In this document: piece by piece, positions 38,058-38,876 of the stretch
How the letters are laid out: each line of letters opens with the position of its first letter
How positions within the stretch are numbered: position 1 is the stretch's first letter
NCBI RefSeq assembly: GCF_055900595.2
Contig: NZ_CM148325.1
Reading direction: 5' to 3' (one strand)
Length of the DNA stretch: 64,000 nt
The notes under the pieces: generated by a model
The model's database searches: none
Seen by the model: only the letters and a program-made list of their open reading frames with translations
What the model was told of the DNA's origin: nothing
Translations under genes and position numbers: made by a program

Positions 38058-38876
38058 ATGCAGCTGAGCATCACCAGTCGAAAAAAATTCACCGCTTTAT
38101 TATGCGCTCTTGGGCTAATTTCCATCGTTGCAATTTATCCGCGTCAGACGGTGAATTTTTTCTACTCGACAGCAATTCAGATTAAAGACTACATCCACTT
38201 CTACGGTTATCGTCCGGTCAAATCTTTTGCTATTCGCATTCCTGCCAGTTACACCATTCATGGTATTGATGTTTCACGCTGGCAGGAGCGAATCGACTGG
38301 CAGCGGGTGGCAAAAATGCGCGATAACGGTATTCGCTTGCAATTTGCCTTTATCAAGGCGACGGAGGGCGAAAAGCTGGTGGACCCCTATTTTTCGCGTA
38401 ACTGGCAACTAAGCCGCGAAAATGGCCTGCTGCGCGGGGCGTATCATTAATTCTCCCCGTCGGTATCCGCTTCAGTTCAGGCGCGATTATTTCTGCAAAC
38501 GGTGGATTTCTCACAAGGCGATTTCCCTGCCGTGCTGGACGTAGAAGAACGGGGAAAATTATCGGCAAAAGAATTACGCAAGCGGGTAAGTCAGTGGCTA
38601 AAAATGGTCGAAAAACGCACGGGAAAAAAGCCGATTATTTACTCAGGAGCCGTTTTTTATCACACGAATCTGGCGGGCTATTTCAATGAATATCCGTGGT
38701 GGGTGGCTCACTACTATCAACGTCGTCCGGACAATGACGGAATGGCCTGGCGCTTCTGGCAGCATTCCGACCGTGGACAGGTAGATGGCATTAATGGTCC
38801 GGTGGATTTTAATGTGTTTAATGGCACGGTGGAGGAGTTGCAGGCATTCGTTGATGGGATTAAAGAAACGCCTTAA
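38058..38876 (+). pseudogene. yegX: yegX (GH25 lysozyme-like glycosidase) interrupted by an in-frame TAA
   Basis: Two ORF-track pieces (38049..38450 and 38502..38876) are in the same frame; the only break is TAA at 38448-38450 (…LRGAYH*FSPSVSASVQARLFLQTVDFSQG…). Read-through length about 272 aa, the size of intact YegX. Confidence 0.7.

Follow-up and report, generated by a model that had tools for sequence, protein, structure and literature searches.

The gene yegX of Escherichia coli K-12 (b2102, 'putative glycosyl hydrolase YegX') has an intact open reading frame (ORF) of 272 codons, and is found within the gene order thiMD, yegX, yegW/ggaR, yegVUT. The better-described proteins with which YegX can be compared are GH25 muramidases of solved structure, among them Cellosyl, in which a D-x-E motif is catalytic. 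Considered here is yegX as found on one strand of a 64,000-nucleotide stretch of contig NZ_CM148325.1 (NCBI RefSeq assembly GCF_055900595.2), with that whole stretch referred to as the window. Synteny and gene length are the same as in K-12, and 785 of 819 nucleotides are identical, with 6 amino-acid differences besides a stop. That stop is the distinction of interest, i.e., codon 131 is TAT in K-12 but TAA in the window. Very likely what is seen is a yegX pseudogene that is due to a single change of TAT (Tyr131) to TAA, which arose once in an ancestor of a lineage near sequence type 485 (ST485) of Escherichia cryptic clade I, which was inherited by sampled descendants, and with which a putative muramidase has been lost. 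It is, that is, an ordinary lineage-fixed pseudogene, a known gene with a simple ochre mutation, and the allele is abundant in public assemblies.

A first-pass annotation of the window had described a GH25 lysozyme-like yegX, otherwise continuous and full length, as split without frameshift by an in-frame TAA at positions 38448-38450, after codon about 130. That description stands in each of its parts. The TAA is found at exactly that position, and is in the frame that is common to the two ORF pieces, which are 38049/38058..38450 and 38502..38876. Codons are numbered here from the ATG at 38058, as this is the start which RefSeq annotates in the nearest relatives, and the internal TAA then is codon 131 of 272, with the normal stop, also TAA, at 38874-38876. 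When 38049-38876 is translated in a single frame, the result is GH25-like and continuous save for one internal stop (...LLRGAYH*FSPSV...). Relative to the intact allele the gene is colinear, without indels or frameshift, and indeed over 6,828 bp the sole difference from strain Z0117EC0005 is an A rather than a T at 38450. The two ORF pieces thus represent one gene, given identity to an intact orthologue at 818 of 819 nucleotides. As restored, its protein matches PF01183 with 186.5 bits (cut-off 27), residues 70-245 covering profile positions 1-180 of 180.

The ancestral state of this codon can be read from relatives. Matches to the 828-bp yegX region are found in 5,424 of 5,426 RefSeq complete E. 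coli genomes, in none of them at 100%, and in 8 of them at 827/828. The A/T difference at 38450 is present also in a 49-kb alignment of the window with three of those 8 nearest genomes. The corresponding codon in other E. coli, which the first-pass annotation had proposed as a check, is TAT in all 8, in K-12, and in 1,736 of the RefSeq genomes, these being the ones to which a 61-bp probe containing the ancestral T matches at 100%. The mutation is a third-position transversion, T>A, which has converted TAT (Tyr131) to TAA, so that what is a sense codon in orthologues is here an early in-frame stop, as is seen with lineage-fixed nonsense pseudogenes. Tyr131 does not vary in an alignment that covers 13 diverse, full-length YegX sequences (E. 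coli and Shigella), and the strand in which it falls, GAYH[YF]F, is conserved among GH25 enzymes of solved structure. The same 61-bp probe containing instead the window's TAA has an exact match in 0 of the 5,426 genomes, the best being one mismatch away, and the lineage carrying this allele therefore has no complete genome within that collection.

That the TAA occurs in no RefSeq complete E. coli genome, and that a single-base substitution is the type of difference which an error could make, might be taken to suggest a sequencing or assembly error, with TAT as the true codon and yegX as in fact intact. Three carriers were read as DNA, however, and each contains TATCATTAATTCTCC. These are L006 (a Logan assembly, SRR15731980), which over 6,393 bp is identical to the window, L007 (SRR18425570), with 2 differences in 6.4 kb, and L009 (GCA_964249055.1, a 5.35-Mb chromosome contig), with 6 differences in 20 kb. 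Different read sets and projects, assembled independently, thus agree on the TAA, which is no sequencing error, and their agreement takes the place of the read-level check that the first-pass annotation had proposed. Within a 15-billion-protein collection (NCBI, ENA, Logan), moreover, the exact 130-amino-acid truncated product (MQLS...GAYH) is present on 381 contigs, in 470 index blocks, and a 124-amino-acid C-terminal fragment on 481 contigs, in 596 index blocks, numbers which count contigs and index blocks rather than curated isolates. Those blocks include contigs of more than 1 Mb. Intact YegX of the same background is present on only 72 contigs. Compared with three relatives over 49 kb, the window is also free of single-base indels, which points to good assembly quality. 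The chance that the stop is an error is negligible. Of the two options which the first-pass annotation had offered, i.e., a recent inactivating mutation or instead a sequencing error, it is the mutation that survives.

The word 'recent' survives only in part. The mutation is recent in a relative sense, as it follows the split from ST485, at approximately 0.05% divergence, but it is not private to one isolate, its carriers having since diverged. A 20-kb region can be compared among the window, L009 and three ST485 genomes. Six states there set the window and L009 together apart from ST485, the TAA among them, and beyond these the window possesses three changes of its own, and L009 two single-nucleotide polymorphisms (SNPs) plus a 1-bp insertion. 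Since carriers share the TAA yet differ elsewhere, the TAA predates their diversification. It lies on the branch that separates carriers from intact relatives, and it is a lineage marker rather than a private or laboratory-age mutation. One might nonetheless posit a private, very recent mutation of a single isolate, e.g., as from culture or an outbreak, given that the rest of yegX is without secondary damage (818/819 identity to the intact allele) and that certain other SNPs of the window, baeS G421S and mdtD R323S, are private, each on 1 contig only. At approximately 0.03-0.05% divergence, though, 819 bp should contain fewer than 0.5 changes, and the absence of secondary decay is therefore uninformative. 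The TAA also is common to genomes that differ from the window (L007 at 2 sites per 6.4 kb, L009 at 6 sites per 20 kb), and hundreds of contigs contain the truncated product. A mutation private to this isolate accordingly has only the slimmest likelihood.

As to the identity of the lineage, strains E400634, E200086, E500002, E600003 and 100117 have been typed as Escherichia cryptic clade I, ST485, OND:H45 (PMC13064198), and the literature describes ST485 as a globally disseminated clade I lineage. The YegX of clade I ST485 (WP_032303341.1; E400634, E200086, 100117, AST85, Z0117EC0005, and others) matches that of the window at all other residues, its gene is identical at 818 of 819 nucleotides, and its flanks are identical over 6.8 kb. 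In these strains codon 131 is TAT and yegX is intact, a nonsense mutation instead being present in a HEAT-repeat gene which is intact in the window. Outside of a recombinant patch, the window differs from its ST485 relatives by approximately 1 site per 2 kb (~0.05%), and based on a divergence that low the window probably is itself of clade I, and closely sister to ST485.

The preferred sequence of events may be described as follows. A T>A change at 38450 would have occurred once, in the ancestor of a lineage close to Escherichia cryptic clade I ST485, and would have been passed to all sampled descendants of that ancestor. Translation from the normal start should then stop after 130 residues, giving a product that would retain an N-terminal hydrophobic segment and, of the GH25 barrel, the first third with its Asp71, but that would be without the Asp161-x-Glu163 motif and the rest of the fold. 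The putative muramidase activity would, as a consequence, be lost.

That the stop cuts the domain is seen directly, as it falls at position 56 of the 180 of the PF01183 profile, and the two encoded fragments match that profile separately, at positions 1-56 and 82-180. The DNA contains codons for both Asp71 (GIDVS) and Asp161-Val-Glu163 (LDVEE), for each of which 2WAG and 4KRU have aligned counterparts, with Asp71 upstream of the stop, i.e., kept in the 130-residue remnant, and the D-x-E motif downstream. There is, however, no uninterrupted ORF for the whole barrel. Judged by its DNA, the locus thus is best viewed as a GH25 pseudogene rather than as a functional family member. In E. coli, few contexts terminate translation as efficiently as a UAA with U after it. 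No Shine-Dalgarno-like sequence is found upstream of the GTG at 38502 (the upstream sequence is TTCTGCAAACGGTG), and useful re-initiation at that GTG is improbable. Given an untranslated D-x-E motif, a GTG without a Shine-Dalgarno, a C-terminal product without an export or anchor segment, and an efficient UAA-U, loss of the putative muramidase activity should be complete. The features of the locus, along with its immediate neighbors, are collected in Table 1.

Table 1. Coordinates, within the window, of the interrupted yegX, its parts, and adjacent genes
Feature	Position	Strand	Basis
yegX pseudogene	38058..38876	+	818/819 nt identical to intact yegX WP_032303341.1 in 8 RefSeq genomes; PF01183 on restored residues 70-245
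Ochre codon TAA, codon 131 (ancestral TAT, Tyr131); mutated base 38450 T>A; next base T (TAAT)	38448..38450	+	K-12 and all nearest relatives TAT
Predicted translated remnant, 130 aa: hydrophobic N-terminal anchor or signal segment plus first third of GH25 domain, Asp71 at 38268-38270	38058..38447	+	Pfam residues 70-130 on profile 1-56/180
yegX part predicted to be no longer translated, codons 132-272; catalytic Asp161-Val-Glu163 at 38538-38546	38451..38873	+	DVE aligned with D-x-E of 2WAG and 4KRU
GTG-started mechanical ORF, 124 aa, called by gene callers as second GH25 fragment	38502..38876	+	ORF calling; exact product on 481 contigs
thiD, intact, upstream of yegX	37193..37993	+	Relatives' annotation
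yegW (ggaR), intact, 51 bp after yegX	38928..39674	+	0 differences from relatives

Certain points weigh against this explanation, among them the above-noted counting of carriers by contig. Loss of YegX function is here deduced from sequence, and the activity that would be lost is itself a prediction, its biochemical demonstration being in no paper found. In a literature search on yegX, the name was absent from titles and abstracts among the matches listed, most of which look unrelated or else are genome-wide screens and lists, and among which no paper was found that describes either the Y131 ochre allele or YegX function. There may also be some low-level read-through of the stop, and the genome may, outside of the 64-kb window, encode an ochre suppressor.

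Were the stop to be tolerated or bypassed in such a manner, then full-length YegX would still be made, via read-through or suppression, or instead the 130-residue fragment and a re-initiated 124-residue fragment would be functional together. Consistent with this, the downstream frame is still fully open, the GTG ORF begins just 17 codons on, and the allele persists in a successful lineage. An open downstream frame, though, is to be expected by default at such low divergence. UAA-U is, as general knowledge, an efficient terminator, TAA is neither a selenocysteine nor a pyrrolysine codon, and the GTG is without a Shine-Dalgarno sequence, while of the two fragments the C-terminal one is missing both Asp71 and an export or anchor segment and the N-terminal one is missing the D-x-E. 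Bypass of the stop thus seems highly improbable.

Two specific forms of such rescue were considered and rejected. Programmed recoding, whether as read-through or as selenocysteine or pyrrolysine insertion, does not fit a UAA codon which is absent from all orthologues examined, nor a gene without an Rfam match. A functional split enzyme, in turn, does not fit a GTG that lacks a Shine-Dalgarno, nor fragments each of which is missing one or more catalytic residues. Within 35.5-39.5 kb the sole Rfam match is the thiamine pyrophosphate (TPP) riboswitch of thiM, and at the stop there is none. That riboswitch, at 36277-36373 (+) upstream of thiM (RF00059, 71.2 bits), is as expected for a thiMD operon.

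Why a lineage should have lost yegX is a separate issue from whether it has. K-12 yegX and the restored gene of the window display 27 synonymous and 6 nonsynonymous differences, for a ratio of nonsynonymous to synonymous rates (dN/dS) of 0.058, and yegX is therefore under strong purifying selection and presumably functional in the species. Other interruptions also are on record. Within one allele, L010 (1501-2319), an amber mutation is found at Q141 (CAG>TAG), as present in 66 index blocks; within L011-L013 (1-1905; 50 index blocks) the 5' half of yegX has been replaced by a mobile element's tail-fibre(-assembly) and invertase/resolvase genes; and there are in addition several frameshifted yegX fragments. 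One possible reading is adaptive loss, with inactivation of yegX selected, i.e., as pathoadaptive or niche-adaptive, rather than being a product of drift or hitch-hiking. The normally strong constraint on the gene is consistent with this, as are at least 3 independent lineage-level knock-outs (Y131ochre, the Q141amber of L010, and the mobile-element insertion of L011-L013).

Three losses among very many sequenced E. coli, however, represent no clear excess. Coding SNPs that distinguish the window from ST485 outside of the recombinant patch consist, furthermore, of approximately 9 nonsynonymous, 1 nonsense and 2 synonymous. A pattern so rich in nonsynonymous changes is what clonal divergence typically displays early on, before purifying selection has acted, and a nonsense mutation now and then is to be expected within it. 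In the sister clade, too, a nonsense mutation is found, that in the HEAT-repeat gene. In light of both the nonsynonymous-rich divergence and that second nonsense mutation, fixation of the yegX loss neutrally or by hitch-hiking is favoured, and adaptive loss is viewed as unlikely.

Found immediately around yegX are genes which are themselves intact. The spacer between thiD and yegX contains, in K-12, an RpoD-binding site that has been assigned to yegX (PMC3946193), and GgaR, as encoded by yegW, represses yegTUV (PMC10819704). The premature stop could, possibly, exert polarity on yegW/ggaR, which is the sole gene exposed to such polarity. A scan for promoter and terminator consensus sequences around yegX and yegW returned sites no more often than in shuffled sequence, and so carries no weight as to operon structure or polarity. 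A more elaborate proposal is that muramidase loss has been both selected and convergent, as across Y131ochre, Q141amber and the mobile-element insertion, e.g., by altering peptidoglycan turnover or fragment release in host-associated Escherichia, with polarity on ggaR and resulting derepression of yegTUV as a secondary effect. This proposal is quite unlikely.

Further from yegX, a number of other differences may be described. The rcnR-thiM spacer (33989-36407) is approximately 2.4 kb in the window and in ST485, and contains a small outer-membrane-protein gene, a hypothetical gene, and a helix-turn-helix-like gene; as this spacer is only 222 bp in K-12, the extra DNA is a small accessory insertion. 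At 27197-27199, which is intergenic between yehE and yehD and upstream of the yeh fimbrial operon, a 3-bp insertion, AAT, is present which all three ST485 genomes lack. The genes for SWIM zinc-finger and WGR-domain proteins (20687-23051, -) are annotated in relatives as incomplete pseudogenes, with an extra frameshift in one relative, while the window's copy is without internal stops in the aligned frames.

The recombinant patch referred to above spans 14067-20996, and is a dense run of approximately 110 substitutions (~1.6%) relative to three ST485 genomes, versus approximately 0.05% elsewhere. It includes yehX, yehW, btsS, btsR, yehS and the SWIM-domain remnant, and it looks like a tract of homologous recombination into one of the two lineages. 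The HEAT-repeat protein gene (54630-56030, -; 466 amino acids) is intact in the window, its exact product being found on 479 contigs. In ST485 that gene is split into coding sequences of 111 and 318 amino acids, with a stop in place of the window's Lys (at 55697 the window has T and relatives A). The two are reciprocal pseudogenes, that is, with each sister lineage having lost a different gene, yegX in the one and the HEAT-repeat gene in the other. Lastly, BaeS G421S (baeS 57384-58787, -) and MdtD R323S (mdtD 58784-60199, -) each occur on one contig only within the 15-billion-protein collection, as HFT1104962.1 and HFT1104961.1 on a 151-kb contig. Unlike the TAA, these are private changes of the isolate, in an envelope-stress sensor and in an adjacent transporter.

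In terms of annotation, the locus is properly a single yegX pseudogene with an internal stop, and not the two GH25 genes that gene callers have entered hundreds of times. The T>A change at codon 131 additionally provides a clean single-nucleotide marker, one that sets a lineage with wide sampling apart from the intact strains closest to it, i.e., cryptic clade I ST485, and as such could serve in typing. Taken with the other natural knock-outs, it shows that some backgrounds can do without YegX, strong though the species-wide constraint is. This dispensability is a modest hint toward the function of an uncharacterised enzyme. Beyond annotation, the pseudogene as a whole has little import.

The restored protein can be compared, in closing, with solved GH25 muramidases, i.e., BaGH25c of B. 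anthracis (2WAG), a Clostridium autolysin (4KRU/4KRT), and Cellosyl of Streptomyces (1JFX). Residues 65-265 of YegX align with these (E from 6e-33 to 5e-28), and the aligned stretch takes in the Asp of G-[IV]-D-V-S, the strand GAYH[FY]F to which residue 131 belongs, and D-x-E. YegX is unlike these enzymes in that 65 additional residues, a hydrophobic segment among them, are found at its N-terminus and in that its muramidase activity is putative, while in the window the domain is cut at one third. Among interrupted versions of the gene, L010 is the closest in kind, with the same gene affected, the same outcome, and the same 124-amino-acid C-terminal fragment as called. There, however, the stop is found 10 codons downstream, at Q141, on a different background (39 nucleotide differences) and as due to a different mutation. 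L011-L013 differ in that yegX has been lost not by way of a point mutation but instead through replacement of its 5' half by a mobile element.
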